IMG/VR virus record: IMGVR_UViG_3300045988_078326
Direction: 5' to 3' (one strand)
DNA length: 64,000 nt
From: a virus
Shown: in pieces, positions 1 through 28,176 of the stretch
How the letters are laid out: every line of letters begins with the position of its first letter
Position numbering within the stretch: position 1 is the stretch's first letter
Notes under the pieces: model-generated
What the model saw: only the letters and a program-made list of their open reading frames with translations
Databases searched by the model: none
Told to the model about the DNA's origin: nothing
Position numbers and translations under genes: made by a program

Positions 1-3
1 TCC

Positions 4-6380: not shown

Positions 6381-6575
6381 TTGGACAAATCCTACGAATT
6401 ATACTATAATAATATTCAGATAAGATATAAGAAAATAGGAGGAATTATTATTATGGTAAATAAATGTGTTGTATGTGGGAAGGATTTTGAGGCCATAAAA
6501 TCCACAAAGAAATATTGCAGTAATGATTGCATGAATGCTGCCAGAAGAGCTAGATATGGAGAACGACAAATTTAG
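6381..6575 (+). CDS. small zinc-ribbon protein
   Basis: 64 aa with CVVCGK...CSNDC. Confidence 0.4.
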   Translation: MDKSYELYYNNIQIRYKKIGGIIIMVNKCVVCGKDFEAIKSTKKYCSNDCMNAARRARYGERQI

Positions 6576-8157: not shown

Positions 8158-8199
8158 TATAGTATAATATATTATATAGTAATATAAGAGAGGTATAAT

Positions 8200-12102: not shown

Positions 12103-12622
12103 AGCAGGAAGCGGTAAGGATACTATTCTCCATAGAATTATGGAGAAGTATCCTTCCTATTTCAATGAAATTATTAGTTGTACGACTCGACCTCCTAGGC
12201 AGGGAGAGAAAGAAGGAGTTAATTATCACTTCTTATCCGTTGAAGATTTTATTAGAAAAATCTTAAATGGAGATATGCTAGAGGCTACTGAATTTAATGG
12301 TTGGCACTATGGAACAGATAGTCAAAGTCTAACAATAGATAAGATAAATATAGGAGTATTTAATCCAGAAGGAGTTAGATGCTTACAGGAAGATGAAAAC
12401 ATTGAACTGTATGTATTTTATGTGCGGGCCGCGGGTAAGTAGCGTCTTTTAAGATAGCTGAATAGAGAAGAAAATCCTGATGTAGACGAAATAATTAGAA
12501 GATACAAAGCGGATACAGAAGATTTTAGTTTTCTTAATGATATAAAATATATAACTCTTTAGAACAATACCTTAGATGATATTGATATAGCTGTTGATAC
12601 TATATTTGGACAATTCTATTAA
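12071..12622 (+). CDS. gmk: guanylate kinase-like nucleoside-monophosphate kinase
   Basis: P-loop GEAGSGKDT and motif SCTTRPPRQGEKEGVNYHF. The frame continues through three TAGs (12440, 12452, 12560) to TAA 12620-12622, giving a typical guanylate-kinase C-terminus. Confidence 0.65.
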
Positions 12623-12679
12623 ATAATTATATTAGAAATCACAATATATAGTGTTCAACAAAAAATATATTACAAGGAG

Positions 12680-14869
12680 TTGTATTATATGTTACAAATA
12701 AAGAAAAGAAATGGTATAGTAGTTCCATTTGATAGAGAACGAATTATCAACGCTATCAATAAAGCCTTCATCGAAGTAGATGGAGAATTATATGAAGATG
12801 ATACTGCAAATGATATTGCAGATGAAATTAAGTATGCAGTAAAAACTTCTGACGATGTGGTTTCTGTAGAAAAAATTCAAGACATGGTGGAAGATTTTCT
12901 TATGAAGTCTGAGCGGAGAGACGTTGCTAAAGCATACATTAGATATAGATATAAAAGAGAAATTGCCAGAAAAGGGCAAGACGATTTTATGAAAGCCTTT
13001 TCTGCCAAAGTGCAGGGTTCAGATATAGAGAATCAAAATGCTAATGTTGATGAAATGTCATTCGGCGGAAGAGTTGGTGCAGCTTCTGATTTGCAAATGA
13101 AGAAGTACGCTCTTGATTATCTTGTATCTAATAAATCACGCGCAAACCATGAGAATAATGAGATTTATATTCATGACTTAAATGCTTATGCAGTAGGTAT
13201 GCATAACTGTCTTTCTATTCCTTTTGATGATTTGCTTGCAAAAGGATTCAATACAAGACAAACTGATGTACGACCAGCGGGTTCAGTAAATACAGCTTTT
13301 CAACTTGTTGCTGTAATCTTTCAGCTTCAAAGTTTACAGCAGTTTGGTGGCGTTTCTGCTACACATCTTGATTGGACTATGATTCCTTATGTAAGAAAAA
13401 GTTTCTATAAACATTATATGGATGGATTGACATATATCGAACAAGTCATTAGCATGGATGATAGATTAAATAATCAACTGTCTATTGAAGATCCTATCTA
13501 TAAGGAATTTAAAGGCGCATATTCATATGCTATCGCTATGACAGAAAAGGAAGTTCATCAAGCGGTTGAGGGAATGTATCATAATCTAAATACTCTTCAA
13601 TCTCGTTCCGGCAATCAACTTCCATTTACTTCTATTAACTATGGAACTTGTACTCTTCCAGAAGGAAGAATGGTTACTAAAGCTCTTCTGGAAGTCTCTA
13701 TTGAAGGACTTGGTAGACTTCACAAGACTTCAATTTTCCCCTGTGGAATTTTCCAATGTATGAAAGGTGTAAATAGGAAGCCTGGAGATCCAAATTACGA
13801 TTTATTTAGATTAGCATTAAAGTCTACTGCCACTAGATTATATCCTAATTATGCTAATGTAGATTGGTCTGGCAATGCCGGATATGATGTAAACGATCCA
13901 AGTACATATTTCTCTACAATGGGATGTAGAACTGCTAATGGATTCGATATTAACGGCTTAAAGCAACAGAAAGACGGTAGAGGAAATATCTGTCCTGTTA
14001 CTATTATAATGCCAACAATAGCAATGGAAGCTAATGGTGACGTAGAAACTTTTATGAAACTTTTAGATATTAAGATCGAAGAAGCGAAAGATATGCTTCT
14101 TGAAAGATTTGAATATATCTGTGCGCAACCTGCGGATTCGGCAAAATTCATGTATGAAAATGGCTTAATGGCTGGATATGATGGAATTTCTACTCGAAGT
14201 GCTTTACAACATGGCACATTGAGTCTTGGGCAGATTGGATTGGCAGAAACTTTACAAATTCTTATTGGATGTGATCATACTGAGCCAGAGGGCATGAAAT
14301 TAGCAAAAAGAATAGAGCAGTTATTTAAAGATAGATGCGCAGAGTATAAAGAAAAATATAGACTTAATTTCGGAGTATATTATACTCCAGCCGAGAATCT
14401 TTGCTATACCTCTCTTAAAAAATTCCGTGATAAGTATGGTATCATTCCTAATGTAAGCGATAGAGAGTTCTTTACTAATTCTATGCACGTACCAGTATGG
14501 CACCAACTCTCTCCATTTGATAAAATTGATATTGAAAGTCAATTAACTGGATATTCTTCTGCTGGTTGTATTACTTATGTTGAGTTAGATACTGGCATGG
14601 AAAAGAATATTGATGCTATGGAGACATTAGTAAATTATGCTATGGATAAAGATATTCCATACTTTGCAATAAATGTTCCATGTGACACCTGCCTAAATTG
14701 CGGATATACTGGCGAGTTTAATGATAAGTGCCCTCAGTGCGGTAGTAAAGAAATTCAACAGTTAAGAAGGGTAACAGGCTATCTAACTGGTAACTACAAG
14801 ACCGCCTTTAATAAAGGAAAGCAGGATGAAGTAAACAATAGAGTTAAACATGTGGGGTATATGGAATGA
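12680..14869 (+). CDS. nrdD: anaerobic ribonucleoside-triphosphate reductase NrdD (class III)
   Basis: 729 aa with an N-terminal ATP-cone. The C-terminal zinc ribbon is CDTCLNCGYTGEFNDKCPQCGS, and the glycyl-radical motif is RRVTGYL. The real start is probably ATG 12689 after an AAGGAG RBS. No TAG codons. Confidence 0.85.
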   Translation: MYYMLQIKKRNGIVVPFDRERIINAINKAFIEVDGELYEDDTANDIADEIKYAVKTSDDVVSVEKIQDMVEDFLMKSERRDVAKAYIRYRYKREIARKGQDDFMKAFSAKVQGSDIENQNANVDEMSFGGRVGAASDLQMKKYALDYLVSNKSRANHENNEIYIHDLNAYAVGMHNCLSIPFDDLLAKGFNTRQTDVRPAGSVNTAFQLVAVIFQLQSLQQFGGVSATHLDWTMIPYVRKSFYKHYMDGLTYIEQVISMDDRLNNQLSIEDPIYKEFKGAYSYAIAMTEKEVHQAVEGMYHNLNTLQSRSGNQLPFTSINYGTCTLPEGRMVTKALLEVSIEGLGRLHKTSIFPCGIFQCMKGVNRKPGDPNYDLFRLALKSTATRLYPNYANVDWSGNAGYDVNDPSTYFSTMGCRTANGFDINGLKQQKDGRGNICPVTIIMPTIAMEANGDVETFMKLLDIKIEEAKDMLLERFEYICAQPADSAKFMYENGLMAGYDGISTRSALQHGTLSLGQIGLAETLQILIGCDHTEPEGMKLAKRIEQLFKDRCAEYKEKYRLNFGVYYTPAENLCYTSLKKFRDKYGIIPNVSDREFFTNSMHVPVWHQLSPFDKIDIESQLTGYSSAGCITYVELDTGMEKNIDAMETLVNYAMDKDIPYFAINVPCDTCLNCGYTGEFNDKCPQCGSKEIQQLRRVTGYLTGNYKTAFNKGKQDEVNNRVKHVGYME

Positions 14870-15339
14870 AGTATGCAGGTATTATAAAAAATGACTTTGC
14901 TGCTGCTCCCGGAGTATCCTTGAGTTTCTTTACTCAAGGATGCCCCCATAGATGTAAAGGGTGTCATAATCAAGAGACTTGGGATTTTGATAGTGGCAGA
15001 GAATTTACTCATGAAACTCTTAATTCAATCTTAGAAGGGCTAACTGCTAATGGAATTAAGAGAACTTTATGTATAATGGGCGGCGAACCATTATGTCCAG
15101 AAAATACATTTTTAACCCATCTAGTAATACAAACCGCAAAGGAGACAATTCCTGATTTGAAGGTTTATCTATGGACTGGATACTTGTATGAAGATTTAAG
15201 AAAAACAACAGATACAGTTATTTAGAATATACTTCAATTAACTGATGTGCTAATTGATGGGCCATATATTGAAAATGAAAGAGATATTACAGAGCCTCTA
15301 AGGGGTAGTCGTAATTAGAAGATAATCTACCTAAAATGA
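14866..15339 (+). CDS. nrdG: anaerobic RNR activating enzyme NrdG (radical SAM)
   Basis: CPHRCKGCHNQ (CxxxCxxC). The frame continues through TAGs at 15223 and 15319 to TGA 15337-15339, giving the conserved C-terminus ...LIDGPYIENERDITEPLRGSRNQKIIYLK. Confidence 0.8.
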
Positions 15340-15368
15340 TTTTCGTAAAAAGTATTTTTGGAGGAATA

Positions 15369-15878
15369 ATGATAGCAATAGCAAGCTATATCTATTTGTC
15401 TGTTGGTGGTATAGTTGGAGCTATTATGTTTTCCATTGGTTTATTAACCATACTAAATATGTAGTTTAAGTTGTTTACTGGTTCAGTTGGTTATATCAAG
15501 AGCAAAAATGATATAAAAGACAATCTTATTATTTTATCAGGAAATATCATTGGAGCGTGCGGGATTTTAGCTTTTCCGCACGCAGCAGCTCTATCTTTGG
15601 TCTCTGCTAAGATTGCAGTTCCGCTATATCTAGTTTTCCTAAAAGGAATTGTTTGTGGTATATTTATATATTCGGCAGTATCTTCATTTAAGAGAAATAA
15701 AGATTATATGGTGCCAGTTTGTGTAACAGGCTTTATATTATTCGGTGGAGAACATTGCATTGCCGATCTTTGTTATGCCTTGGCCGCTGGTGTGCTTTCT
15801 ATTGATATAATATTATTTCTAATAGTAGTTACATTGGGTAATTCTATAGGAGCAATAATTGTTGACAGAATACAATAA
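15369..15878 (+). CDS. short formate/nitrite transporter (FNT)-like membrane protein
   Basis: ATG 15369, with TAG at 15462. FNT-like blocks are LNMQFKLFTGS (compare LFTGN), NLIILSGNIIGA and FGGEHCIADLCYA (compare EHsIANmf). About 5 TM helices. It appears N-terminally truncated relative to FocA-type channels. Confidence 0.45.
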
Positions 15879-15914
15879 TTATGATATTATATTAAAAGAA
15901 AAGGAGGGCTAGAT

Positions 15915-16259
15915 ATGACTTTATATGAGTTAAATCAAGCTGGATATGCTTCTCTTCCAAAAATGACAAAAGCCGAGCTAGATACGGCTAAAGAAGATAT
16001 TATCACATTTTTAAAATCTCACAACTCACAATATTACATGATGCTTAATCATGATAATAAATACTTCACTTTATTTGTTTATGAAAATAATATAGACGTA
16101 GAAAAAATGGCACGTGAGATTATCTCAGTCTCCAAGTCTCTTGGAGAAATTAAATCAATAGAAGTAAATGGAGATATTATAGAAATTTGGATTCTATATG
16201 AAGGCAAATGTGATATGTACGCATTTTTCGACTATGCAAAAGGGGTGATACAAGTATGA
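15915..16259 (+). CDS. hypothetical protein
   Basis: 114-aa ORF with RBS AAGGAGGG, intact in the standard code. Confidence 0.45.
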   Translation: MTLYELNQAGYASLPKMTKAELDTAKEDIITFLKSHNSQYYMMLNHDNKYFTLFVYENNIDVEKMAREIISVSKSLGEIKSIEVNGDIIEIWILYEGKCDMYAFFDYAKGVIQV

Positions 16260-16522
16260 CAAATAGCATTATTGTTAATTATGATCCATTCGCGATGGAA
16301 TCTACTGTATATATCCTAGAAGATGGATTGCAAAAACAAATGAAAGTATGCTCTGATATTAACGGCCTGGCGGAAACTCTGGTTGGACTTTCTTACGGAA
16401 ACAATATATATAGCATACTAATTCATGCCCCTCTTGCAATTACAGGGGAAATAAAGAATTTTGTGCGAGATTTAGAAGCAAGTATGTATTCAAATAATAA
16501 AATTACAGTTGAGGGAATTTAA
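16256..16522 (+). CDS. hypothetical protein
   Basis: 88-aa ORF overlapping its neighbours by 4 nt. Confidence 0.4.
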   Translation: MTNSIIVNYDPFAMESTVYILEDGLQKQMKVCSDINGLAETLVGLSYGNNIYSILIHAPLAITGEIKNFVRDLEASMYSNNKITVEGI

Positions 16523-16766
16523 TATGGTTTATAATTTAAAGTCTACAAATACTTATAGAGTGCCAACCGTAGAAGATGCACTTAGACTGCGGAAATGGCT
16601 AGAAAAGACGGCAGTAGGAGAGTTAACCTCATTTAAATATGCTACTAAGTATATTAAGCAAAAGGGAGAAATAATTGAGGAGTATCAACTCGTTACTGCT
16701 ACAATGACTATCGACAATGAAAAAGAACCAGAAGGCGTTATGCCAATTACTATTACGGAGGAATAA
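16509..16766 (+). CDS. hypothetical protein
   Basis: 85-aa ORF. Confidence 0.4.
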   Translation: MREFNMVYNLKSTNTYRVPTVEDALRLRKWLEKTAVGELTSFKYATKYIKQKGEIIEEYQLVTATMTIDNEKEPEGVMPITITEE

Positions 16767-16767
16767 T

Positions 16768-17334
16768 ATGAGCGTATATTTCGAGAAAGTAAGTCGTTTT
16801 AATGACATTGATCTACCTATACCAACTCGCGCAACCGCAAATTCCGCAGGCTATGATTTTGTAGTTGCAGAAGATGTCGTTCTTCCTCCAATGAATTTTT
16901 TAACTTCTAAGATTCAAGATCATGTTTTTGAAAAAAATGCTGACAAGGATTTTTATGGGTTCGTAGACCCATTTACTCTTGATGATATGGCTAATCTTAC
17001 TAAAGAATTAAAATCCAAGATTACGCTAGTATCAACAGGAATGAAATGTCATTTAAATCCTGGGCAGTATTTAGAATTAAGCGTCCGCAGTTCTACTCCT
17101 CTTAAACACTGGATTATTTGCGGGAATAGCGTAGGTATTATTGATGCTGACTATTGCGATAATCCCGATAATGAAGGAGAGATTTTCTTTCAACTCGTTA
17201 ATCTATCTCCTTTTGCTATCCAACTGAAGCGAGGAGATAAGATTGGTCAAGGTATTATTAAAAGCTATGGGATTACAGATAATGATGCTGCGACTGGAGA
17301 AAGACTTGGCGGATTTGGAAGCACTTCTGTATGA
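16768..17334 (+). CDS. dut: dUTPase / dCTP-deaminase superfamily protein
   Basis: ATG 16768 after ACGGAGGAATAAT. Motifs ANSAGYDF and GIIDADYCDNPDNEGEIFFQLVN...GDKIGQGII match dUTPase motifs. Confidence 0.6.
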   Translation: MSVYFEKVSRFNDIDLPIPTRATANSAGYDFVVAEDVVLPPMNFLTSKIQDHVFEKNADKDFYGFVDPFTLDDMANLTKELKSKITLVSTGMKCHLNPGQYLELSVRSSTPLKHWIICGNSVGIIDADYCDNPDNEGEIFFQLVNLSPFAIQLKRGDKIGQGIIKSYGITDNDAATGERLGGFGSTSV

Positions 17335-17810
17335 GTAATTTATTATCATTAGACTAGAGCTCCAGAATCACGGGGTACGCGGTCTTTGAAGATAATAAGT
17401 TAAAAACATTTGGTAAATTTGTTGTCGAAGATAGTAATATAGATACTAGATTAGTAAAGATAAGACAAAAGATAAAAGATCTTATTATCTAGTTTAATAT
17501 AGATGAAGTCGTTTTTGAAGATATACAATAGCAAAATAATGTATCTAATAATGTATAGACCTTTAAAATTTTAGCGGAGGTCTATGGAGTTATTTCCGAA
17601 TTATTAGAAGAAGAGAAAATACCTCATTCAACGATTTTATCTACTTCATGGAAATCTCTTCTTGGGATAAAGGGTCGCACTAGACCAGAATAGAAAAAAA
17701 ATGCCCAGGATTATGTGTTAAATAACTATGGTACAAAACCAACTCAAGATGAAAGTGATGCGGTTTGTATCGGCCTTGCGCATATAAAATAGAATTAGTG
17801 CGCTTGGTAA
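17331..17810 (+). CDS. ruvC: RuvC-like Holliday-junction resolvase
   Basis: The ATGA overlap with dut gives the start. Translation with TAG as sense gives MSNLLSLD(Q)SSRITGYAVFEDNK...DESDAVCIGLAHIK..., with RuvC N- and C-terminal catalytic motifs. At least eight in-frame TAGs. Ends at TAA 17808-17810. Confidence 0.65.
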
Positions 17811-17824
17811 TTGGTCCAAATAAA

Positions 17825-17879
17825 AAAATCCTCCTTTCTTAACTTTAAAATACTTTGAGAAGTTAAGAAAGGAGGATTT
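17825..17879 (+). promoter_or_regulatory. 20-bp perfect inverted repeat sequestering the RBS of the downstream gene; terminator-like
   Basis: aaatcctcctttcttaactt (17825-17844), a 15-nt loop, then aagttaagaaaggaggattt (17860-17879). The right arm contains AGGAGG one nucleotide before ATG 17881. Confidence 0.55.
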
Positions 17880-17880
17880 T

Positions 17881-18312
17881 ATGTTTACATTTATAGCAGA
17901 ACATATAGTAGAAATTCTGTTTGGTCTAATTTCCGCAGGTGCTTTGGCTTTTTGTAGATATTTATATAAACAATTAATAGCTTACAAAAAGATGTTACAA
18001 GAGAAAGAGAATGATGATATAGCTGAATTGATTGACGAAAAGTTGAAACCTGTAGTAGAAGATATTGAAGAACTTCGAAGATATATACGGAGGATTGAAA
18101 ACAAAGAAAATCAAGACTTGACCTTAATTATAGCTTCGTATAGATTTCGACTTGTTCAACTGTGTAAAATATATATCAAACAAGGATATATGACGCAAGA
18201 TCAATATGACCAGTTAACAGAATTTTATAAACTCTATACCTCTCTTGGCGGAAACGGTTAGGCGAAAGAATATTACGAAAAAGCGATTGAGTTAGAAATT
18301 AAATCTGTATAA
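17881..18312 (+). CDS. membrane-anchored coiled-coil protein
   Basis: 126-aa ORF with an N-terminal TM and coiled coil. It continues through TAG 18259-18261 to TAA 18310-18312 (...GGNGQAKEYYEKAIELEIKSV). Confidence 0.45.
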
Positions 18313-18313: not shown

Positions 18314-18348
18314 AAAAAAAATGGGGAACTCTTAATTGAGTTCCCCAT
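18314..18348 (-). terminator. bidirectional rho-independent terminator at the convergence of the + early and - late units
   Basis: Perfect 11-bp inverted repeat atggggaactc / gagttccccat with a 6-nt loop. It is flanked by an A7 run, which reads as U7 on the minus strand. It overlaps the stop codon of the minus-strand gene. Confidence 0.6.
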
Positions 18349-18658
18349 CCTTCTTTAAACGATTGAAAATTGAGTTAGTCATATTTATTATCTCTTGACC
18401 ATAAGTTGCTATCAAATCTGCTAGCAATTCCTCTTGTTCAAATGATAATTCTATCCCATAACTAAACATTGCAGCGTGTGTTAATTCATGACATAAAACT
18501 TTTTTCATCATCGTTGAAGATAATTCTTCATTGATATAAATACCTTTAGTTTTGCTATCGCAAGCTCCTATTGTTAATTGACCATCACTTCTAATTAACA
18601 TAGGATGAATAGGAGAAGTTAAGAATAATTTCCATTCTTCTCCATTTATATTAAGCAT
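18332..18658 (-). CDS. ImmA/IrrE-family (DUF955-like) zinc metallopeptidase
   Basis: 108 aa with HExxH in VLCHELTHAAMFSYG. Confidence 0.5.
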   Translation of the reverse strand: MLNINGEEWKLFLTSPIHPMLIRSDGQLTIGACDSKTKGIYINEELSSTMMKKVLCHELTHAAMFSYGIELSFEQEELLADLIATYGQEIINMTNSIFNRLKKDGELN

Positions 18659-19253
18659 GGTTTAAAGAAGATATTTTTGTAGCAAGAGCAGAGATCTTTT
18701 TCTCTAGGAGCTGTCTTTCTTCTGGACTTGCATCATCAATCATTTCTACTAAATCCTCACTTAATTCTTTCATATATTTGTCCAATTCTCTAATTTTAGT
18801 ATCCTTGTCTTTATGCAATTCTTTTGATTCCATATACATACGACGAGTAATTGGACTGCGGCCTTCGCGAGAATCTCTTAGTTCCATGGGATATTCTCTT
18901 TCGTTGTAATAGATTGGTTTTTCTCCATATCCTTTACGACTACCTGACATATCCTCCATGTATCTGCCTTGAGAATCTCTAGAGCGAGGATAATACATTC
19001 TGCCCCAATCGTCTCTATCCATATCTCTATCTGGAAGATAATATGGTGGCATCATTGGGATGTAATATTTCTTATGTTCCTCTTCTTTCTCCTCCATTGC
19101 CTTGACAATAGAACAGTAATACATCGCCTGTTCTAAGTCTTTTATCATATCAATAACTTCGCCTAATTCATGGGTATCTACATTATGAATATCGCTTAGC
19201 TATGATTGAACACATCCAATAAGAGTTTCTTTCATATGTTTAAGTCTTTCCAT
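18651..19253 (-). CDS. Tyr/Arg/Asp-rich low-complexity protein of unknown function
   Basis: ATG 19253 with RBS AAAGGGTGG. One in-frame TAG at 19200-19202. Extends ORF 18651..19148. The repetitive region reads ...YYPRSRDSQGRYMEDMSGSRKGYGEKPIYYNEREYPMELRDSREGRS... Confidence 0.4.
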
Positions 19254-19303
19254 AATTAAGCCACCCTTTCAATAATTAGATTTGCGTTTTGGACGTCGAT
19301 TGC

Positions 19304-19678
19304 CTAAGTAGAAATATTTTTTACGGCAATTTCAAAACAACATCCTCTTGGTACATCAATAAATATAGAACTTGCTACATTATTGTAGTCTCCTACTGCT
19401 GGAGCTGTAGATATCATAGTAGTAGAAGCTACACCTTCTCCGTTAATAGCAATAGCTAAAGAAATTGGGCCTATTGTTCCACCTGCGGCGATCGCAATAT
19501 TGCCGCTAAAGTGAGCTTTATATCTAGCTCTACACTGAGTAGATGTATTACCTTTTAATGTTACTAGTCCACTCCCAACGCGGTGTAGTAGGCTGTTGGA
19601 GCAGCCTACTACCGCATCGGTAAAAAGGACATTCTGATTAGCTTGTACTGTTTGTACGGCATTCGCAATAATTTCCAT
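19304..19678 (-). CDS. C1q/TNF-like (BclA C-terminal-like) jelly-roll domain protein
   Basis: 124 aa. The pattern NVLFTDAVVG...GLVTLKGNTSTQCRARYKAHFSG...ISLAIAINGEGVAS...SSIFIDVPRGCCFEIAVKN follows C1q-domain spacing. Confidence 0.35.
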   Translation of the reverse strand: MEIIANAVQTVQANQNVLFTDAVVGCSNSLLHRVGSGLVTLKGNTSTQCRARYKAHFSGNIAIAAGGTIGPISLAIAINGEGVASTTMISTAPAVGDYNNVASSIFIDVPRGCCFEIAVKNIST

Positions 19679-19707
19679 TGAACCAAATCTCTCCTTTTAA
19701 TTTCTAA

Positions 19708-20613
19708 TTAGCACCCGCAACTATTCATGCTATAGCAGCAGTTGGGGTTTGGTACTACGTAAGCGGGAATTGGATTATCACGACCTAATCTGCGGATGAG
19801 CTCGGCAGTTTGAGCTTCCTGATTAGCTGTAATAAAGTTATTCTGAGCCTGTTGAGATGCGGCAAGACGAAGAGCCTGATTCTCGTTTTGCAAATCAGAG
19901 ATTTTCTCCTGGCAGAGATAATCGAGAATTGCACGAGTTCCAGCGTTCTGGCTATCAATAATATCACGAGTATTATTAGCCATAGAAGTTTGAAGCGCAT
20001 TTGTATTAGTTGCTAGATTGTAGTTGACGTCGGCAAAACCTCTCTCAATCTAACGACCAGTCTCGCAGCAGCAATCTGCAATTTGGCGAGAAATAGCATT
20101 TTGATTTGTGAGATTATCAAAGCTTGCTTGCTGAATTGCAGATTTAGTATCGCAGCAACAGTTAGAGAGCTGTGTAGCCAAAGCATTTTGACCCTGCATT
20201 AAAGCTACATTAGTGCTGTTAAATCCTTGCTGTGTCTAATATCCGAGATTACATACTGCATTATCAACTCCATGGAATCCATTAGTTAAAGCATTATTCA
20301 GAGCATAAGTGCTGTCACAGATTCCCTGTTGAATAGCATTAATACCAGACTGGAGATTTTGGAAAGCAAAACCTTCATTAATGTCTGCGCGAGTTGCCCA
20401 GCCTTGGCCAGAAGGGGAGCCTAAACCATTGCTATTAGCTCCGTATCCACCAAAGCCTCCGAATCCGTTTCCCCATCCAGAGAAGCAGAATAGGAATAGA
20501 ATTATAATCCACCAAGCTCCTCCGTCATTCCAAATTCCGCCGTTGTTACGCTCATTACCACCTGTAGCAGCGGCGATGTCAGCTAAAGAGTATCCATTGT
20601 TAGAATTGAACAT
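19708..20613 (-). CDS. Gly-rich, single-TM, Cys-cluster protein of unknown function
   Basis: ORFs 20236..20613 and 19708..19983 share a frame. They are joined by sense TAGs at 20236-20238 and 20050-20052, with no other stops. It has a Gly-rich N-terminus, a TM segment WWIIILFLFCFSGW, repeated NALTNGF/NQNAI segments, and CCC motifs (SNCCCDTK, ADCCCETGR, NPNCCYSMNSCGC). Confidence 0.45.
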
Positions 20614-20637
20614 TTAAGTTCCTCCTTTAAGAAAATA

Positions 20638-20871
20638 TTAAAGGCCGAGCATTTTCTTAAAGTCAGCAAACTCCTTGTCATAGTCTAATCCTCTTTGGGA
20701 TAAAAGATTTCTAGCTATTTGTTCTATCTCTTCTGTTTTATTCTACTTGGCAAGATCTAACAAATTAGCTCCAAACGGATTATTCCCCATCTAGCTTTCT
20801 AGCATATTTAAAGTTAGTTGCTGAGGATTCTATCCATTCCTAATCATTTGAATTAACTACATTGGATTCAT
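20638..20871 (-). CDS. small hypothetical protein (about 77 aa)
   Basis: RBS GGAG 8 nt before ATG 20871. Two sense TAGs. Ends at TAA 20638-20640. Confidence 0.4.
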
Positions 20872-20883
20872 TTTATCGACTCC

Positions 20884-21309
20884 TTAAAAATCTAATTTTG
20901 GCTTTGATTCCTGCTATTGCGCTGTAGGCTACTTACTTGCCTATGGCGCAATTTTTTCTTTTAGTTGAGCAAGTACGGTTTCAAATTCTTCTCTAGTAAC
21001 ATACTGAGAAGGATTGACAACTGTTTCAACTGGAATATTCTTTAATTCATAAACATTAAGCGTTGAAGTTCCATCTAAATTTATCTATTTTGTATATATT
21101 TTTTTATTAGCTAAATCAGGAAAGAAAAATACAGAACCATCAAAGTCAATGCTAGTTGCCTTCACTTCTTCTATTGAAGAAACTGGGCGACCTTTAATTC
21201 CAATCTAGGGCTATTCCACATACTGCATCCTTTGTTGCGGTATATAAGGGACTGCCGCATACTAAGGCTGCTATTGTTGTGGCATATAGTATGGATAATT
21301 AACTGCCAT
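20884..21309 (-). CDS. Gln/Tyr-rich protein with very dense TAG usage
   Basis: RBS GGAGGTAAAACT before ATG 21309. Hand translation gives MAVNYPYYMPQQ(Q)QP(Q)YAAVPYIPQQRMQYVE(Q)P(Q)IGIKGRPV..., with about 9 TAG in roughly 140 codons and no TAA or TGA until 20884-20886. Confidence 0.45.
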
Positions 21310-21357: not shown

Positions 21358-21407
21358 AATTTTGGCAAAGATAATTTTACTATTTTGCCAAAATTTTTGC
21401 CAATTTT
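21358..21407 (-). promoter_or_regulatory. promoter/operator region A with three copies of a TTGGCAAAA / TTTTGCCAA-type motif
   Basis: tttggcaaag (21361-21370), ttttgccaaaa (21383-21393) and tttttgccaatttt (21394-21407). On the minus strand this reads as TTGGCA, an 18-nt spacer, then TAAAAT upstream of the gene at 21309. Confidence 0.4.
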
Positions 21408-21416: not shown

Positions 21417-21448
21417 ATATATAATGGGACATAGTAGTCCCATTATAT
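21417..21448 (-). terminator. rho-independent terminator after the holin gene
   Basis: Perfect 11-bp inverted repeat atataatggga / tcccattatat, followed on the minus strand by a U-run. The right arm overlaps the holin stop. Confidence 0.45.
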
Positions 21449-21837
21449 CATGATAGTCTGTGCTCATTAACAGCAGCTTCGATAAGGTTAGTTAAATAAG
21501 TATTTAAGTCACCAGTTGTCTCGATAATATACTGTTTTGCATCACTAGAAAGGATTTCCAATACAGAGTTCATAGTCTTATCAAATGCAATTTTCTATGC
21601 CTCTGCATCAAAAGCACCCTGTTCTTTTAAGCTATCTACATAGGTTTGATTTGTTGCTATTACACACTTAGTAATAGTATCAAATATCATAGTAGTATAT
21701 TTCTGAGCTGTTTCATTCTCTGTTTTAGAATTTAACTCATCTCGTTTTGCAGAGAGGAAATCTACGAGATATTTTGTTAGAATACCAAGCAGAGGAAGAA
21801 TACAAAGCTAGAATATTTGAATAACAATTTCAGGCAT
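21448..21837 (-). CDS. holin (LL-H / Firmicutes phage holin-like)
   Basis: RBS GGAGGAATTAAT before ATG 21837. N-terminal TM is IVIQIF(Q)LCILPLLGILTKYL. C-terminus is ...IETTGDLNTYLTNLIEAAVNEHRLS. Two sense TAGs. Ends at TGA. Confidence 0.5.
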
Positions 21838-21924
21838 ATTAATTCCTCCTTTATATTATATATAAAACAAGAGGAAGATGGTTTAACTTTATTTGACCTG
21901 CGGATTTCCATTCAAACGATCGTT

Positions 21925-22512
<588 letters not shown>

Positions 22513-22541
22513 CTTTATCACCTCATAGATATATGAAAAAA

Positions 22542-22585
22542 TGGCAATTTTATATAACAAAAATTGCCCAAAAATTTGGCAATTC
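22542..22585 (-). promoter_or_regulatory. promoter/operator region B with three copies of a TGGCAATTTT-type motif
   Basis: tggcaattttat (direct), aaaattgccc (inverted) and tttggcaattc (direct). Together they form a 26-bp imperfect palindrome GGCAATTTTATAT|AACAAAAATTGCC. It lies upstream of the recombinase and resembles region A. Confidence 0.4.
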
Positions 22586-23951: not shown

Positions 23952-24267
23952 AAAATTTCTCCTTTCATTTTTAAAAAAGTACACTTTACTGAACTTGGTC
24001 AAACATATATAATCAATCTATACTCTTTTTCAAGTATATTTGAAAAGAGTAAGATACTCACTTTTGGGAAAAGGGTTTCTTACCCTTTTCCCAATTTTTT
24101 GTTATCTAGGAAGAAAAAGTATTTTTCCTGTTAAAAAGTGTACTTTTTCTCGGAAATTGTTTATGGCTTTCTAAAAGACTGGAGCGAAGATCGCTTCCAT
24201 CCTCGACCTTCTATCTAGTAGTTTAGATTTGTTTGAAACAATAGCTAGATAGAAGGAGGTAAATAAT
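23952..24267. promoter_or_regulatory. divergent control region between the minus-strand fibre/lysis unit and the + strand retroelement island
   Basis: Direct repeats aaaagtacacttt (about 23977) and aaaagtgtacttttt (about 24133). Perfect hairpin gggaaaagggt/acccttttccc (24066-24092) followed by a T6 run. Inverted repeat ctatctag...ctagatag (24211-24254). RBS GAAGGAGG before the target gene. Confidence 0.4.
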
Positions 24268-26034
24268 TTGCCTAAATGTATTTTAGCTGAATAGGGTGGA
24301 AAAGGTGGAGGTTCTCTTTCTCTTGTAAAAATTGAAGTAACCACTCCCCCTACTAAAACGAGCTATCTTGCTGGTGATACTTTTAATCCCGCGGGAATGG
24401 TAGTCACCGCATCTTACGGCGTGGACGGCGTTATTGTAACAACAGCAGAAGTAACTGGGTATCAAGTTACTCCAAACCCTTTAACTGATGGGGTTACTAA
24501 AGTAACAATTACTTACTCTGAATCAGGAGAAACTTGTTAGACCACTCAAGACATTACTGTTATTCATAAACTTCTTAGTATTTAGGTTACTACTAACCCA
24601 ACTAAGACAACTTATGAATATGGAGACACTCTCCAAACAACAGGAATGGTAGTTACAGCAAGTTATTCTGATAGTACATCATCCGCGGTTACCGGGTATA
24701 GTTGCTCTCCAACGTCATTAACTGCGGTTGGCACCTAGAAAATTACTGTTTCTTACACAGAAAATGGAGTAACTCAGTCTGCTTCTTTCAATGTTACTGT
24801 TGAAAGAAAATCGGTGCCGAAACCAACATGGAAGAATAATCTTACCTATACTGGTAGTAGCCAATCAGTAAGTGGTGCTTCCTATTGGAATAACTTTAAT
24901 ACCACTTATATGACGATTGGCGGGACAACTTCCGCGACTAACGCTGGAACCTATACTGCTACTTTCACACTAAATAGTAATTATAGATGGGCCGATGGAA
25001 CTACATCAAATCTTGATGTAAACTGGACTATCAATAAAGCTGCTGGGACTTTAACAGTAAGTCCAACTTCTGTAGCTCTTGATGGAGATAACTATAGTGC
25101 AGGCGTAAAAGTTACTATTACCCGTCCTGGAGATGGAGCTATTAGTTATAGCCCAACTAGCGTTTCTGGCTTAACTTTATCTTTAAGTGGGAACGTTCTT
25201 ACAATTAAAGGCGACGGTAGTACAGCTATTTCTTCTACAACTATTACTATCAAGGTTGCAGCAGGAACTAACTATACGGCTCCAAGTAATAAAACTGTTA
25301 CAGTAACAGCTAGCTATTGGGAGTGGGGATCTGAAACTGCTGTTGGTGATGCTAAATGGTGGGCTGGATTAAAAACATGGGCCGCTAAGGCATCATCTGG
25401 AGAGCGACAAAATTGCGTAGGTAAGACTAAAAGAGTAAGTTTATCATCTTCTGTTTTAGGTGGTAATCAAGTATTAATGAGATGCGTTGGCGCAGATTAG
25501 GATGGAACAGGAACTTTAGCTTTTAATGCTGTCTCCGCTCTTCCTAATTCTACAGATTTTGGTAGCAATGCAATATGGATTGGATCAACTGCTAGAGATC
25601 TATGTCAAGATTTCTATAACCGCTGTAGCGCGAAAGATTCTATTAAGACAGTAAAGAAGGGTACTTGTCCTAGTACAAATAGCTCTAGAAATGGTTCTGT
25701 AACCTATAATGATGAAACAGTATTCTTATTATCCGAAAGAGAATACGGATTAGATTCTTACTCTCCTATCTCCACTTCAAACAGTACTACCTCTAAAGCA
25801 GAGTGTACTCAAGGTTATAATGCTGCGTATAGTTACTACACAAGCAACTCTAGAAGGGTTATGTACTTAGGAGATGCAAACGGTAATCCAACTAGCTCAT
25901 ATGTGTATCAATGGGAGAGGTCCCGTTACTACAACTACTCGTACAACGTTTGCTATGTCGACACCGATGGTTCTGCGAACTACACCGGCTACAACATCAG
26001 CCGTGGGCTCGCGCCGGCTTTCGTTATCGGATAA
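24268..26034 (+). CDS. retroelement target protein: Ig-like (Big) repeats plus C-terminal C-type-lectin-fold domain carrying the variable repeat
   Basis: TTG 24268 after GAAGGAGG. The frame is continuous through sense TAGs (24292, 24538, 24583, 24736, 25498) and contains ORF 24814..25500. Repeated domains read VTT(N)PTKT.Y..GDT....GMVVTASY. The C-terminus ...ECTQGYNAAYSYYTSNSRRVMYLGD...YNYSYNVCYVDTDGSANYTGYNISRGLAPAFVIG ends with TAA at 26032-26034. Confidence 0.8.
25919..26017 (+). repeat. retroelement variable repeat
   Basis: 99 bp aligned without gaps to the template repeat. All 14 mismatches lie at template adenines. Ends in the GC-rich box gggctcgcgccgg, 15 nt before the target stop. 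Confidence 0.9.
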
Positions 26035-26115
26035 CACAATAAAATAACAATTCGGGACAGTTAAGATTAAATTGTCCAACTAAAATTTTATATATTCAAG
26101 TGAGGGAGATTTTAA

Positions 26116-26610
26116 ATGTCTGTAAAAGTAAAAGATAGACACATATCAAAGCAAGATTGTCTTTATAAAGCACGCGACTTAATGGGATATATTTTAGTCT
26201 TAACTCGTCCTAGAGAATATGATAAGGATGGAAAACAAATTTGTAAGCCTGGACTGCTTGGAGAGGGTCAACCTCTTCAAGCGTTCGGGTACGATATAAT
26301 TAAGTGCGGAAAGGGCTTACATGCTTGCTGTTATGAGGCATGTAAGATAAACTTGAAAGACAAAGAAACCCTTGCAAAGAGAAATGACTATCATAATAAA
26401 GCACTAGAATATTGTGATAGTATATTTCGACAAATCGACCTATGTATTTATTAGTATGCTCAGAACAGCAAAAAGAAAAGACGCTCTTTTGAACATCTAG
26501 CTAGATTGACAAAGAGAGTAAAAGAGTCAATCCAAGATAGAAAAAATAGAGATAAACTTATAACAGAGCATAGATATTCAGCTCCTAAGAGATATAGGAG
26601 AGGTCGATAA
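26116..26610 (+). CDS. avd: putative accessory variability determinant (Avd-like)
   Basis: About 164 aa from ORF 26116..26454 extended through sense TAG 26452-26454 to TAA 26608-26610. Basic C-terminus. It sits between the target and template repeat, as avd does in canonical cassettes. Sequence similarity to Avd is not clear by eye. Confidence 0.35.
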
Positions 26611-26641
26611 TATTTTTCTACGGTTAAGTTCTGTATCTTTC

Positions 26642-26740
26642 GGTCCCGTAACTACAACAACTCGAACAACGTTTGCAATGTCAACAACGATGGATCTGCG
26701 AACAACAACAACTACAACAACAGCAATGGGCTCGCGCCGG
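26642..26740 (+). repeat. retroelement template repeat
   Basis: ggtcccgtaactacaacaactcgaacaacgtttgcaatgtcaacaacgatggatctgcgaacaacaacaactacaacaacagcaatgggctcgcgccgg. It is AAC-rich, and the variable repeat differs only where this repeat has A. Confidence 0.9.
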
Positions 26741-27051
26741 ATTAGATGGAGCTATCATGTTGCGAGTTAAGCTGCGGAGCAGCGCAAACGAGCAACGCCT
26801 AAATAGTACCCCGGAGTATATTATTATCCATCTAATTAAGGTTTACTCTGGATTGCACTCACTTTATGTGGGGAAGAGATTGAGAGACCATTAAAGAGCT
26901 TTGCTCTACAACTATCGAATAATATACTATAGGTAGATCTGCCTTTTCATCTAAGGAGAACTTAACCATTTCACTGAAAAAGTGGATAAAGTAAGACTGT
27001 AGACGTGGAGCTCGAGTAGCTACCACTATAGCTACATGATAAGGAGAAAGT

Positions 27052-28176
27052 ATGTCTGAAATAAAACAAGATACTGCTTTCGAGCGTTTTTGTAGTTTTG
27101 ACGCTATGTATGAGGCGTCTTATAAGGTATGTCGAAACGTTCGATGGAAAGATAGTACAATTAATTTTGGAGAGAATAGGATAGAAACAATTTTAAAAAC
27201 AGAAGCTGACCTGCGAGCGTGTGAATACGAACAGCTTGTGTTTAGTTGTTTTTCGATAATCGAACGAGGCAAACCAAGAGATATAAGAGCGTGTCATATC
27301 AACGACAGACTGGTACAAAATGCGTTATGTGAACAAGTTTTGCTACCAGAATTAACTCCTAGATTTATCTATGATAATTGTGCAACCCTAAAAGGAAAGG
27401 GAATAGACTTCGCTCTGGAAAGAGTTAAGAAACATCTCCAATAGGCTCATAAAGAGTATGGGTTAGGAAAAGATTTTTATGGATTAAGAATTGATATACA
27501 GAAATATTTTGATTCTATTGACCATGAATCTTTAAAGAAAGCAGCTAAACGGCTAATAAAAGATAAACTTGTTTATTAGTTATGTTGTTACTTGATAGAT
27601 ACATTTTCTTTTAAGCTAACAAAAGACACTTCGCCTATACCCGGTAAAATATATTACACAAGTAAGCGACACAAGTATGAAAGAGTTAATGTTACTCATT
27701 TCTAGCCTGGTCGTAAGTATTATGAATATGAAAGAAAGAGCCTGGGATTAGGAAGTCAAACGTCACAATTATTCGCATTGCTAGCATTGAACGAAATTGA
27801 CCACTTCATAAAAGAAGAGTTACATATTAAGTATTATGGTCGTTATATGGATGATTTATACTTGCTCCATAATGACAGTAAATACTTGGCCGAATGTGAG
27901 AAACAAATAGAAATTCGCTTAAATAAACAAGGATTAAAGATGAATAAGAAGAAAACTACTATCACTAGAATTTCTCCTATTCACGCAGATGGCGAACGCC
28001 ACGCTCCTTTTAAATATTTAAAGTGGAATTTTCATCTCACAGAAACTAATCATATAATACAACTTCCTTTCAAGAAAAAAGTAGCTCATCAGCGCAGAAA
28101 ACTAAAGAAAATGTAGGCTTTATGGTTAGATAATAAAATTTCAACTGAAGAAGTTTAGAAATCTTATTAGGGCTGA
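27052..28176 (+). CDS. retroelement reverse transcriptase
   Basis: ORFs 27052..27444 and 27778..28116 share a frame and are joined through sense TAGs. Reverse-transcriptase motifs 1-2 sit in the N-terminal part, plus YYGRYMDDLYLL (YMDD). It continues past TAG 28114 to TGA 28174-28176. RBS AAGGAGA. A hairpin gtagcta/tagctac lies just upstream. Confidence 0.85.

Follow-up and report, generated by a model that had tools for sequence, protein, structure and literature searches.

A conserved mobile six-gene cassette behind the holin gene of a TAG-recoded siphovirus

Background

What could six consecutive minus-strand genes of odd composition be doing directly behind the holin gene of a large phage? 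The genes (G1 to G6, 18332-21309) lie in the window analysed here, a 64-kb stretch of a viral genome of ~148 kb; two close relatives (L010 and L011) are found on ~148-kb contigs. The original prediction, made from the sequence alone, regarded them as a moron-like accessory block in which no gene resembles a standard phage function, and suggested that they encode phage-borne spore coat or exosporium components. Here we report that G1 to G6 are a conserved mobile cassette and not random cargo, and we weigh several explanations of what it makes, among which we tentatively favour a membrane-anchored assembly acting on the cell envelope at lysis.

Results

TAG recoding and organization of the locus

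The phage of the window is a TAG-recoded siphovirus, probably kin to the phAss-1 group by likeness of genome features. Once TAG is read as Gln (genetic code 15), all six predicted genes are confirmed (Table 1). In alignments, the in-frame TAG of G4 pairs with the Q of STQAIDVQNANLI in standard-code homologues and the first TAG of G3 with Q in LGYQTQQGF, while the second TAG of G3 pairs with Q in close homologues (ETGRQIERGF) at a position where the wider consensus is variable. The same TAG-versus-Gln criterion picked out five more recoded loci. In-frame TAG codons number eight in G1, four in G2, two in G3, one in G4 and two in the holin gene. Neither a tRNA, and hence no suppressor tRNA(CUA), nor an integrase was seen in the 64-kb window of the ~148-kb genome. 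Since G1 and G2 are untranslatable in the standard code, they should become translatable only once the phage has changed the code, i.e. in lytic growth. Recoded TAGs are reported to occur chiefly in late genes and in lysis genes (PMC10607447; bioRxiv 10.1101/2021.08.26.457843); some replication genes of the window phage also carry them, and TAG density alone is thus no clean marker of late expression.

G1 to G6 look like one transcription unit. Strong ribosome-binding sites precede the genes, a hairpin and then a promoter-like site follow the holin gene, and past G6 lies a bidirectional terminator hairpin that the cassette has in common with a convergent plus-strand gene (17881-18312). The overlap of G5 and G6 suggests translational coupling. 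Possession of its own promoter-like site and terminator hairpin agrees with the description of the locus as a moron-like block; in this AT-rich region promoter-like sites were not enriched relative to shuffled sequences, and the candidate ahead of G1 is weak and indistinguishable from background.

Table 1. Genes and predicted transcription signals of the cassette and its holin-proximal flank (positions in the window)
Feature	Position	Strand	Description
Holin gene	21448..21837	-	129 aa, 2 in-frame TAG; phrog_13712 holin, E=1.5e-33; directly upstream of the cassette
Terminator-like hairpin with T-run, end of holin gene	21419..21448	-	Predicted by consensus scan: 12-bp stem, then ATTTTTAC
Sigma-70-like promoter candidate ahead of G1	21374..21403	-	TTGGCA-18-TAAAAT, 10/12 positions (scan)
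G1	20884..21309	-	141 aa; phrog_21718, E=2e-9; RBS AAAGGAGG upstream; alignment A3
G2	20638..20871	-	77 aa; Met/Gln/Asn-rich helical protein
G3, hallmark gene	19708..20613	-	301 aa; phrog_16490, E=8e-68
G4	19256..19678	-	140 aa; stand-alone TNF/C1q-like jelly roll; alignment A1
G5	18651..19253	-	200 aa; alignment A5
G6	18332..18658	-	108 aa; minimal zincin (predicted); start overlaps G5 stop by 8 nt
Bidirectional intrinsic-terminator hairpin	18321..18348	.	Predicted; 11-bp stem, 6 GC pairs; on the minus strand, stem then TTTTTTTTATT

The cassette proteins

G1, G2 and G5 are low-complexity proteins. The TAG-dense, Gln/Tyr-rich G1 begins with a Gln/Pro/Tyr-rich prion-like N-terminus, continues with a small beta domain that is conserved and a short coiled coil, and ends in a basic tail. 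In G5 a helical pair at each end, N- and C-terminal, flanks a disordered centre that accounts for the Tyr/Arg/Asp/Met-rich composition and contains the conserved motif R-(R)-D-S-x-G-R-Y; neither PDB nor Pfam yielded a relative of G5.

G3, which has more than 8000 homologue clusters, runs from an acidic N-tail through a short Trp-flanked hydrophobic anchor and a Gly-rich linker into an Asn/Gln-rich hendecad coiled coil of ~200 residues and a Cys-rich tail. The Gly-rich N-terminus, the repeats and the Cys clusters originally noted for this protein are all present, the 14 Cys including two CCC motifs in the coiled coil and those of the C-terminal tail PxPAYVVPNPNCCY..CGC; the single hydrophobic segment (WWIIILFLFCF), originally read as a transmembrane helix, is short, only ~12-14 residues. 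Its flanking charges give no clear topology, the N-tail averaging 3.4 D/E versus 0.95 K/R. Internal repeats are offset by multiples of 11 plus 29, a hydrophobic period of 3.65 residues is dominant (power 114 versus 32 for the next), and the composition is 13% N, 12% Q and 1% K. The AF2 monomer is a near-continuous helix over residues 75-276 (DSSP segments 75-148 and 153-276), predicted with low confidence (pLDDT 52). The Cys-rich tail is kept in 80/80 G3 homologues, with 9-18 Cys each. No G3-G4 fusions occurred among the top G3 homologues, and the type of G3 tail did not covary with the occupant of the G4/cluster 5 slot.

For G4 the proposed C1q/TNF-like character was upheld but the length of 124 aa was not: that ORF (19304-19678) stops at a TAG where non-recoded homologues have a genuine Gln codon. 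The AF2 model (pLDDT 87.4, pTM 0.82) is a jelly roll whose strand pattern fits the ten-strand TNF/C1q fold, to which we confidently assign it. Its best Foldseek matches in the PDB are the exosporium proteins F-BclA CTD, ExsFA, BxpB and BclA (9h38, 7r1m, 8d02, 9h3d and 1wck; E=6e-8 to 6e-6, TM 0.64-0.77), as the original intuition had it, with a similarity at the level of the fold only. Further PDB matches are TNF ligands (4-1BBL, EDA), C1q domains and phage fibre tips, and stand-alone phage proteins in BFVD align with TM 0.80-0.87. The family phrog_20016 aligns with G4 end to end (positions 3-141 of 141). G4 has 6746 homologues and conserved Cys (C49, C113 and C114); non-recoded homologues show an invariant C-terminus, VQNANLIxERVA. 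Trimerisation is also a defining feature of the TNF/C1q superfamily. Going by the strand order of the model and canonical TNF topology, the three invariant Cys would sit where strand C begins and in the F-G turn, probably at the base of the trimer, which in BclA and C1q is the site of stalk attachment.

Judging from its HELTH...E signature, G6 is a minimal M78 (formerly DUF955) zincin, and its earlier placement as an HExxH peptidase of the ImmA/IrrE family is borne out by matches to PF06114 Peptidase_M78 (29.4 bits, cut-off 22), DUF6782 (30.1 bits) and phrog_1233 (E=8e-17). Its 1180 homologues measure 103-112 aa, and most have a precomputed PF06114 assignment. No XRE/ImmR-type repressor lies beside G6 in the window, and neither G5 nor the convergent gene encodes an HTH domain. 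In other phages the G6 slot is taken by a non-homologous Cys-His protein, which suggests a substrate internal to the cassette rather than a repressor. G6 shows no peptidoglycan-hydrolase fold.

Pfam, NCBIfam, PADLOC, PDB sequence matches and the literature offered nothing that explains the six-gene set. The claim that none of the genes resembles a standard phage function stands only as far as function is concerned, but the genes do belong to recurrent phage families, represented here by phrog_21718, phrog_16490, phrog_20016 and phrog_1233.

Distribution and synteny

The cassette recurs in thousands of gut phages. G1 to G6 are not chance ORFs: hundreds to thousands of homologues exist for each gene, and the synteny is conserved. 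Among the 80 genome loci with G3, 67 from Clostridia prophages and phages had enough flanking sequence for counting; there, G3 is accompanied by a G5-type gene in 67, G1 in 63, a G4-type gene in 62, a G2-type gene in 55 and a peptidase-type gene in 46, and all four partners are present jointly with G3 in 48/67. Conversely, 15 of 16 G4-bearing phage records also carry G3. Order and co-occurrence are kept over very different phage backbones, with divergence down to ~30% identity.

Several positions accept non-homologous occupants. G4 alternates with a Cys-rich beta protein (cluster 5) and G6 with the Cys-His protein (cluster 6) or with cluster 12; the G5 slot holds cluster 2 in 62 of the 80 loci and a DUF7841 protein in 15, and the slot between G1 and G3 holds cluster 3 or, as an alternative, cluster 7 (phrog_22984), together in 55/67 loci. 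Such swaps at fixed positions suggest functional slots.

Genomes of sipho-, myo-, podo- and crAss-type contain the cassette or its core, as do prophages and the ~148-kb lineage of the window. Carriers belong mostly to Clostridia; one is a phage that infects Butyrivibrio fibrisolvens. Bacteroides and crAss-like phages have diverged versions, and for a crAss-like homologue the depositors' annotation reads 'spike protein/glycoprotein'. Accompanying the cassette in many loci are a small sigma-region-4-like HTH gene and a gene for a single-pass membrane protein. The usual place of the cassette is right behind the endolysin and holin genes, and in one locus (L089) and in a Vescimonas megaplasmid prophage it lies behind lysis genes at the prophage boundary. 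Sometimes it is located within the head module, as in Dulem virus 35 and several prophages, between the gene of a MuF-like minor head protein and the scaffold and major capsid genes. This location inside the head-gene block would also fit a role in the virion.

Lysis context

The nearest large upstream gene encodes a peptidoglycan hydrolase in ~20 of 35 representatives, and the holin family of the window (cluster 17) precedes the cassette in eight related loci. In a non-recoded relative (L090) the order is holin, CHAP+CW_7 endolysin, then G1 to G6. As originally noted, no peptidoglycan-hydrolase domain adjoins the holin of the window; an adjacent endolysin is likewise absent from two relatives (L091 and L092). 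Pfam and PHROG searches found no canonical endolysin domain (amidase, muramidase, CHAP, M15 or M23) in G1 to G6; elsewhere in the window (5467-6270, plus strand) lies a gene for a Phage_lysozyme2 protein that bears a signal anchor at its N-terminus. A two-component spanin, in which a type II membrane coiled-coil protein is paired with a lipoprotein of the outer membrane in a diderm host, was considered and rejected: G3 has an anchor and a coiled coil, but a signal peptide with a lipobox is found in none of the cassette proteins, and most carriers are Clostridia.

Discussion

Our preferred reading, held tentatively and at somewhat less than even confidence, is that G1 to G6 form an autonomous, horizontally mobile, late-lytic operon that builds a membrane-anchored stalk-plus-head assembly acting on the envelope at lysis. 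It draws on the gene models, TAG=Gln, the family sizes, synteny and alternative modules, the G4 fold, the periodicity and composition of G3 and the adjacency to lysis genes. The operon, at the far end of the lysis module in many gut phages, would be expressed late in lytic growth, and its two constant components would be G3 and a small Cys-bearing beta protein, here G4. With its N-terminal hydrophobic anchor, a predicted ~30-nm Asn/Gln-rich hendecad coiled-coil stalk and a Cys/Gly-rich C-terminal tail, G3 would form oligomers, probably trimers, and thereby a stalk anchored in the cytoplasmic membrane. Trimers of G4 may dock on the Cys-rich end of the stalk via thiol contacts (disulfide or metal), and G3 and G4 together would represent a two-polypeptide version of the 'stalk plus gC1q/TNF head' design of BclA, C1q and many phage fibres. 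The prion-like Gln/Tyr-rich G1, the Met/Gln-rich G2 and the Arg/Tyr/Asp-rich G5 might serve as assembly or matrix partners, one of which the small zincin G6 would mature or release; in other phages a Cys-His peptidase-like protein takes the place of G6. We infer that the assembly acts on the envelope of the infected cell and is neither a part of the spore nor an obligatory part of the virion. As G1, G2, G4, G5 and G6 lack signal peptides, extracellular assembly would need holin lesions, or else the stalk would be cytoplasmic.

An unlikely alternative is an accessory fibre or whisker of the virion, with G3 as a fibritin-like trimeric coiled coil on the head or neck, G4 as its distal knob, G1, G2 and G5 as chaperones or scaffolds and G6 as the maturation protease. 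TNF/C1q-like knobs are common at the tips of phage fibres; PDB and BFVD matches include the cyanophage A-1(L) short tail fibre, the phi812 central spike knob, a 'fibritin neck whiskers' protein and collagen/C1q phage proteins; and the cassette genes are late and TAG-recoded, as structural genes are, and lie among head genes in Dulem virus 35 and several prophages. Yet a strongly hydrophobic Trp-flanked segment is atypical of a soluble virion fibre, structural-protein PHROG and Pfam matches are lacking, and the conserved partners are all encoded inside the cassette. Moreover, unrelated virion types share it, mostly behind lysis genes or at the prophage end, whereas a fibre would need a lineage-specific attachment site. 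That phage-borne coat or exosporium components alter host spores is highly improbable, despite the folds nearest to G4 (BclA-CTD, ExsFA, BxpB), a Cys-, Tyr- and Gln-rich composition like that of coat proteins and the many sporulating Clostridia among the carriers. A Pfam check for CotJB, Coat_F and C1q gave G1 to G5 no match to any coat family at E<=1, nor was there an NCBIfam match; no cassette protein has a collagen-like run of >=4 GXY triplets; and expression is tied to the recoded, lytic state. The genes were never met in sporulation loci: 80/80 loci have phage-type neighbours (lysins, holins, MuF, capsid), and the two studied in detail reach a prophage boundary. The hosts of Butyrivibrio, Bacteroides and crAss-like phages are non-sporulating, and Butyrivibrio phages such as Ceridwen have the cassette, Bacteroides and crAss-like phages a diverged core. 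Of the original interpretation, then, the structural intuition, the G6 family, the moron-like block and the missing adjoining endolysin survive, and the spore coat or exosporium biology does not. There is a slim chance that the cassette is a cross-linkable 'exosporium-like' coat or fibre system assembled in non-sporulating infected cells at lysis, with TNF-like heads, Cys-rich coiled-coil stalks, Gln/Tyr/Arg-rich matrix proteins and a maturation protease as its parts. If so, its material would serve to tether or cloak progeny virions or cell remnants in the gut or to stabilise them, and would be the bacterial-virus counterpart of protective structures formed by occlusion or derived from the envelope.

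It is quite unlikely that the cassette is a third lysis component, in which G3, like an i-spanin, a class-I fusion protein or the phiX174 H pilot protein, follows holin and endolysin and ruptures or remodels the membrane or envelope, while the others assist. The position directly behind holin or endolysin in most loci, the lack of an adjoining endolysin in the window, L091 and L092, the architecture and hendecad periodicity of G3 and the depositors' 'spike protein/glycoprotein' label would fit, but most hosts are monoderm Clostridia that need no spanin, no lipoprotein partner with a lipobox is encoded, G6 is no peptidoglycan hydrolase by fold, the cassette also occurs away from lysis genes in head modules, and no known lysis system has a TNF-like protein, prion-like proteins or an M78 peptidase. 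We find it very doubtful that the genes are a prophage-expressed surface or conversion moron (superinfection exclusion, defence, anti-defence or adhesion), attR-proximal in temperate phages. The prophage-boundary loci, the cassette's own promoter-like site and terminator hairpin, the accompanying HTH and membrane protein genes and the predicted membrane anchor of G3 point that way; against it, a large TAG-recoded phage has the cassette, with G1 and G2 untranslatable in an uninfected standard-code cell, a crAss-like phage has it too, no integrase was seen in the 64 kb covered of the ~148-kb genome, a conserved six-gene set is unusual for exclusion functions, and PADLOC gave no match save an insignificant one of the G3 coiled coil to ZorA tails (E ~0.01). 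Scarcely credible, finally, is a hitch-hiking set of six unrelated small accessory genes with no joint function: individual slots are swappable or missing and the G3-G4 contact is only presumed, but the conserved order and co-occurrence across diverged backbones and the G5/G6 overlap speak for a common function.

Comparison with known systems

The genome around the cassette resembles those of the TAG-recoded gut siphoviruses phAss-1/'Phassvirus' (PMC10607447) in its TAG=Gln recoding, in a tape-measure gene of ~2900-3200 aa, in having recoded genes for holin and dUTPase and in a predicted Clostridia host; the G1-G6 cassette is not described there. Like the ImmA/IrrE (Peptidase_M78) anti-repressor proteases, G6 exceeds the Pfam gathering threshold and combines HExxH with a downstream Glu, but it consists of the core only. 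G3 resembles i-spanins, class-I fusion proteins and phiX174 H in that a hydrophobic, Gly-rich segment at the N-terminus leads into a long coiled coil. H, too, has hendecads and an Asn/Gln-rich surface, and Rz forms intermolecular Cys links such as the Cys of G3 could allow. G3 nevertheless has no sequence relation to these proteins and no o-spanin partner, its hosts are mostly monoderm, it is ~2x as long as Rz and, unlike H, it does not belong to a microvirus.

Phage fibres with C1q/TNF-like knobs and fibritin-type shafts (T4 fibritin, A-1(L) 8ke9, phi812 9eul) likewise combine a long coiled-coil shaft with a jelly-roll knob. In the cassette, however, separate genes encode shaft and knob, a membrane-type hydrophobic segment is present in the shaft, low-complexity proteins and a putative zincin accompany them, and the whole is independent of virion lineage and usually outside the tail and head modules.

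The BclA CTD and ExsFA/BxpB, the nap and anchor of the Bacillus exosporium (1wck, 7r1m, 8d02, 9h38, 9h3d), share with G4 a TNF/C1q jelly roll of ~135-150 residues. Identity is only 14-16%, G4 has no Pfam membership, and the cassette genes are phage-encoded near lysis genes, also in phages of non-sporulating hosts. To our knowledge, a conserved Cys triad like that of G4 is not a feature of BclA or ExsF. The BclA/ExsFA systems join a trimeric head or platform to a fibrous stalk, as the proposed G3 stalk and G4 head would do, but where BclA has a collagen-like GXY stalk, the candidate stalk here is a separate, hydrophobically anchored hendecad coiled coil.

Gene models and genetic code

Under the standard code the cassette region falls into short ORFs, with in-frame TAG codons throughout its minus-strand translation. 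When TAA and TGA are taken as the sole stops, the window becomes a coherent phage genome in which the six unusual minus-strand genes of the original prediction are confirmed (G1 to G6, collectively the cassette; see table). Judged from alignments, TAG is a glutamine codon in this phage, since the TAG closing the 124-aa ORF originally proposed for G4 aligns with a true Gln codon in standard-code homologues. The 16 residues past it (AIDVQNANLIIERVA) form the best-conserved stretch of the G4 family and phrog_20016 aligns to G4 end to end, so that the length of this protein is corrected to 140 aa. One TAG of G3 lies at a consensus Gln and the other at a Gln in close homologues. G1 and G2 cannot be translated in a standard-code cell. 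No tRNA, suppressor tRNA included, was found within the 64-kb window.

Recoded TAGs have been reported chiefly in late and lysis genes (PMC10607447; bioRxiv 10.1101/2021.08.26.457843). In the window, several abundant structural proteins (53550-54944, 58687-59739) and NrdD contain none, and some replication genes carry them too (seven in RuvC, 13 in the gene at 3712-5463). In its ~3000-aa tape measure, its recoded holin and dUTPase genes and its predicted Clostridia host, the window phage is similar to the TAG-recoded gut siphoviruses of the phAss-1 group (PMC10607447).

Features of the window phage, with positions in the window
Feature	Position	Strand	Remarks
Replication and nucleotide-metabolism module	1-18300	+	helicase, primase, Pol III alpha, NrdD/NrdG, dUTPase, RuvC
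Phage_lysozyme2-domain protein	5467-6270	+	E=4e-17; N-terminal signal anchor; early/replication module, far from holin
Formate/nitrite-transporter-family protein	15336-15878	+	polytopic membrane; PF01226 E=2.6e-15; one in-frame TAG; among nucleotide-metabolism genes
G6	18332-18658	-	108 aa
G5	18651-19253	-	200 aa
G4	19256-19678	-	140 aa
G3	19708-20613	-	301 aa
G2	20638-20871	-	77 aa
G1	20884-21309	-	141 aa
Holin	21448-21837	-	phrog_13712, E=1.5e-33
Small serine recombinase	21889-22560	-	Resolvase domain E=7.5e-31; 5 in-frame TAGs; directly upstream of holin
DGR target gene	24229-26034	+	Big_3 + DUF6273 protein
DGR VR	25919-26020	+	102 nt
DGR accessory gene	26116-26610	+	Avd-like
DGR TR	26642-26743	+	102 nt
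DGR RT	27052-28176	+	RVT_1 reverse transcriptase
ABC_trans_CmpB-like protein	28909-29367	+	polytopic membrane; adjoins DGR
Structural module, long		-	includes the 2899-aa gene
Tape-measure-like gene	42652-51351	-	2899 aa; 104 in-frame TAGs

Sequence signals predict that G1 to G6 form a discrete transcription unit. A hairpin with a T-run at the end of the holin gene is followed by a TTGGCA-18-TAAAAT site, AAAGGAGG-type ribosome-binding sites precede G1, G3 and G4, G6 and G5 overlap by 8 nt, and between G6 and the convergent gene at 17881-18312 lies a GC-rich hairpin (18321-18348) that has a T-run on each strand. The terminator hairpins are more convincing than the promoter ahead of G1, a weak call because such sites are not enriched over shuffled sequences.

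Distribution and gene order of the cassette

The six genes make up a conserved, mobile cassette, uncharacterised and very widespread among gut phages. By tblastn, G3 was detected in 30 phage records, including the cultured Butyrivibrio virus Ceridwen, Bacteroides phage C3_41T2LP and the crAss-like cr116_1; G4 occurs in 16 phage records, 15 of which also carry G3. A scan limited to one genome per species yielded 80 loci, nearly all of them in Clostridia MAGs or prophages (Oscillospiraceae, Lachnospiraceae, Acutalibacteraceae), with Anaerotruncus colihominis DSM 17241, Lachnospira intestinalis and Enterocloster hominis among the cultured carriers and two ~148-kb contigs closely related to the window phage and likewise TAG-recoded. 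Plasmids are essentially free of the cassette: only two matches were found, one of which belongs to a prophage carried by a megaplasmid. Because the cassette-bearing MT83xxxx small contigs are unverified scaffold fragments rather than small circular genomes, we abandoned the notion that the cassette is a small virus or satellite embedded in its hosts. The source databases, RefSeq included, name the cassette proteins solely "hypothetical protein", and no description of the cassette was found in the searchable literature (BclA/TNF-like in phage, DUF7841, PHROGs, C1q-like Clostridia prophages, Bacteroides uniformis phages).

Clustering of neighbouring proteins revealed a fixed order of six slots. 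Slots 1 and 3 hold G1 and G3; slot 2 holds G2 or an alternative small Gln-rich protein, slot 4 holds G4 or an unrelated ~135-aa Cys-rich beta protein (cluster 5), slot 5 holds G5 or a DUF7841 protein (the latter always with cluster 5), and slot 6 holds G6, a ~105-aa protein (cluster 12) or a ~126-aa Cys-His peptidase-like protein (cluster 6). Among the 67 loci with enough flanking sequence, G3 is accompanied by a G5-type protein in all 67, by G1 in 63, by a G4-type protein in 62, by a G2-type protein in 55 and by a peptidase-type protein in 46, and all four partners occur together with it in 48. The cassette is hence a multi-protein module whose functional slots accept non-homologous replacement. 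An apparent fusion of G3 to cluster 5 in one locus (L089) proved to be an alternative-frame artefact.

G3 persists in the Bacteroides and crAss versions (HMM E=1e-38 and 7e-29), and downstream of it lie a different beta-rich protein that bears Cys, charged proteins of low complexity and a peptidase with an HExxH motif. The universal core is an anchored Cys-rich coiled coil together with a small Cys-bearing beta protein.

Many loci carry upstream genes for a single-pass membrane protein and a small sigma-region-4-like HTH protein, both lacking in the window. The former (cluster 10) is always followed by the ~69-aa sigma-70-region-4-like HTH protein (clusters 8, 15) just before G1, as in L014, L017, L023, L012, L026 and others; the two genes may be a cassette-specific regulator pair.

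Predicted structure of the cassette proteins

Pfam, NCBIfam, PADLOC and PHROGs were run on all six proteins and the alternative cassette members, and informative matches were limited to M78 (G6), DUF7841 (the G5 alternative), sigma-r4/HTH (the upstream gene of other loci) and PHROGs of unknown function. G1, G2, G3 and G5 have no relatives in Pfam, NCBIfam, PADLOC or PDB sequences, profile searches against PDB sequences with G1, G3, G5 and cluster 5 returned nothing significant, and signal peptides are absent from cassette proteins other than G3.

No Pfam family matches G4. Its homologues number 6746 at E<=1e-3; almost all are 139-140 aa long, and Cys49, Cys113 and Cys114 are invariant. Its AlphaFold2 model is confidently all-beta (pLDDT 87.4, pTM 0.82). 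The best Foldseek matches in the PDB are the F-BclA C-terminal domain, ExsFA, BxpB, the ExsF anchoring complex and BclA (E=6e-8 to 6e-6, TM 0.64-0.77), followed by TNF ligands, C1q domains and phage fibre knobs; in BFVD the top ranks go to uncharacterised proteins of 130-142 aa that stand alone and come from uncultured sipho-, myo- and podoviruses (TM 0.80-0.87), with collagen/C1q proteins next. The original description of G4 as C1q/TNF-like and BclA-CTD-like is therefore correct at the level of the fold. No homology between G4 and cluster 5 was detected by hhalign.

G3, with more than 8000 homologue clusters and a match to phrog_16490 (E=8e-68), begins with an acidic tail of ~30 residues, a short Trp-flanked hydrophobic core (WWIIILFLFCF) and a Gly-rich linker. 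AlphaFold2 predicts a near-continuous helix (75-148 and 153-276) at low confidence (pLDDT 52), as expected where the monomer of an oligomeric coiled coil is modelled alone, and only its secondary structure was used. Over residues 75-276, alignment-averaged hydrophobicity has a single dominant period of 3.65 residues (power 114, against 32 for the next), from which G3 is predicted to be a hendecad (11/3) coiled coil of ~30 nm. Internal repeats are offset by 11, 22, 29, 40, 51 and 62 residues, and the helix is rich in Asn (13%), Gln (12%) and Ala (12%), with just 1% Lys. Every G3 homologue has at least one CCC motif, a P-x-P-A-Y...Cys/Gly-rich tail and 9-18 Cys. Charge statistics did not settle the membrane topology of G3, and no covariation was found between its C-terminal tail type and the downstream partner type.

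With 29.4 bits on PF06114 (cut-off 22), G6 is an M78 zincin of minimal size, and its 1180 homologues span 103-112 aa. In G1, a Gln/Pro/Tyr-rich N-terminus leads into a small conserved domain (~50 aa), after which come a short coiled coil and a basic tail; G2 is helical and rich in Met, Gln and Asn; and G5 is helical at both ends and disordered in its Tyr/Arg/Asp-rich centre, where an RDSxGRY motif is conserved.

Genomic context

The nearest large gene upstream of the cassette encodes a peptidoglycan hydrolase in ~20 of 35 representative loci (Amidase_2 in 10, CHAP in 4, GH25 in 3, plus Amidase_3, M23 and M15), and in several prophages the cassette is the final phage block before host genes. 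In another lineage it lies between a MuF-like minor head protein and the scaffold and capsid genes. The cassette is co-located, and probably co-expressed, with terminal (lysis) genes.

As originally noted, the window has no lysin beside the holin. Non-recoded relatives share its layout, one of them with a CHAP+CW_7 endolysin between holin and G1. The Phage_lysozyme2-domain protein may be an endolysin, secreted or of SAR type, or else a lysin of the virion. The serine recombinase, whose position is kept in the relative L010, may serve as an invertase or resolvase and not as an integrase.

The window also contains a complete diversity-generating retroelement (DGR; 24229-28176, plus strand), whose VR and TR are 85% identical with all mismatches at A of TR. 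Relative L090 (14670-19099) carries a gene for a PFL-like glycyl-radical enzyme besides NrdD in its nucleotide-metabolism block.

Discussion

The cassette had been read as spore-coat or exosporium-like cargo; apart from the fold resemblance of G4 this failed our tests, and a role in sporulation is not supported. Our best model, held tentatively and with slightly less than even confidence, is that two polypeptides would build a stalk with a TNF-like head, that the low-complexity partners would help this assembly, that the small peptidase would mature it, and that it would act on the envelope of the infected cell as infection ends. What limits our confidence is that the charge statistics leave the topology of G3 ambiguous, that no other cassette protein has a signal peptide, that tail type in G3 shows no covariation with partner type, and that the siting of the cassette within the head module of some phages also fits a role in the virion. 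The main rival is a virion whisker or fibre; behind it we rank a lysis factor resembling spanins or fusion proteins, and a prophage module for surface functions or exclusion.

Whichever holds, the cassette is among the more abundant unexplained gene content of gut phages, G3 and G4 each comprising thousands of 90%-identity clusters, and it spans phage families and host phyla. Its fixed order and interchangeable non-homologous parts are a pattern typical of a real multi-protein machine, located where phages keep their last-acting genes. In Gram-positive anaerobes the end-game of infection, and what it needs beyond holin and endolysin, is poorly known; solving the cassette could bring to light a step in virion release, a structure on the infected-cell surface or a type of virion appendage that would be new in each case. 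Butyrivibrio phage Ceridwen, a carrier, is in culture on B. fibrisolvens DSM 3071, which makes the question directly testable, and the cassette merits experimental follow-up in that phage.

We found no description of a counterpart in which a stand-alone TNF/C1q-like protein is paired with a hendecad coiled coil anchored in the membrane and with a zincin dedicated to the set, and the design would represent a new variant of stalk-plus-C1q/TNF-head assemblies. If G4 follows the usual order of TNF strands, its invariant cysteines would sit at the base of the trimer, facing what would be the Cys-rich tail of G3, and it is at the trimer base that the stalks of BclA and C1q attach.
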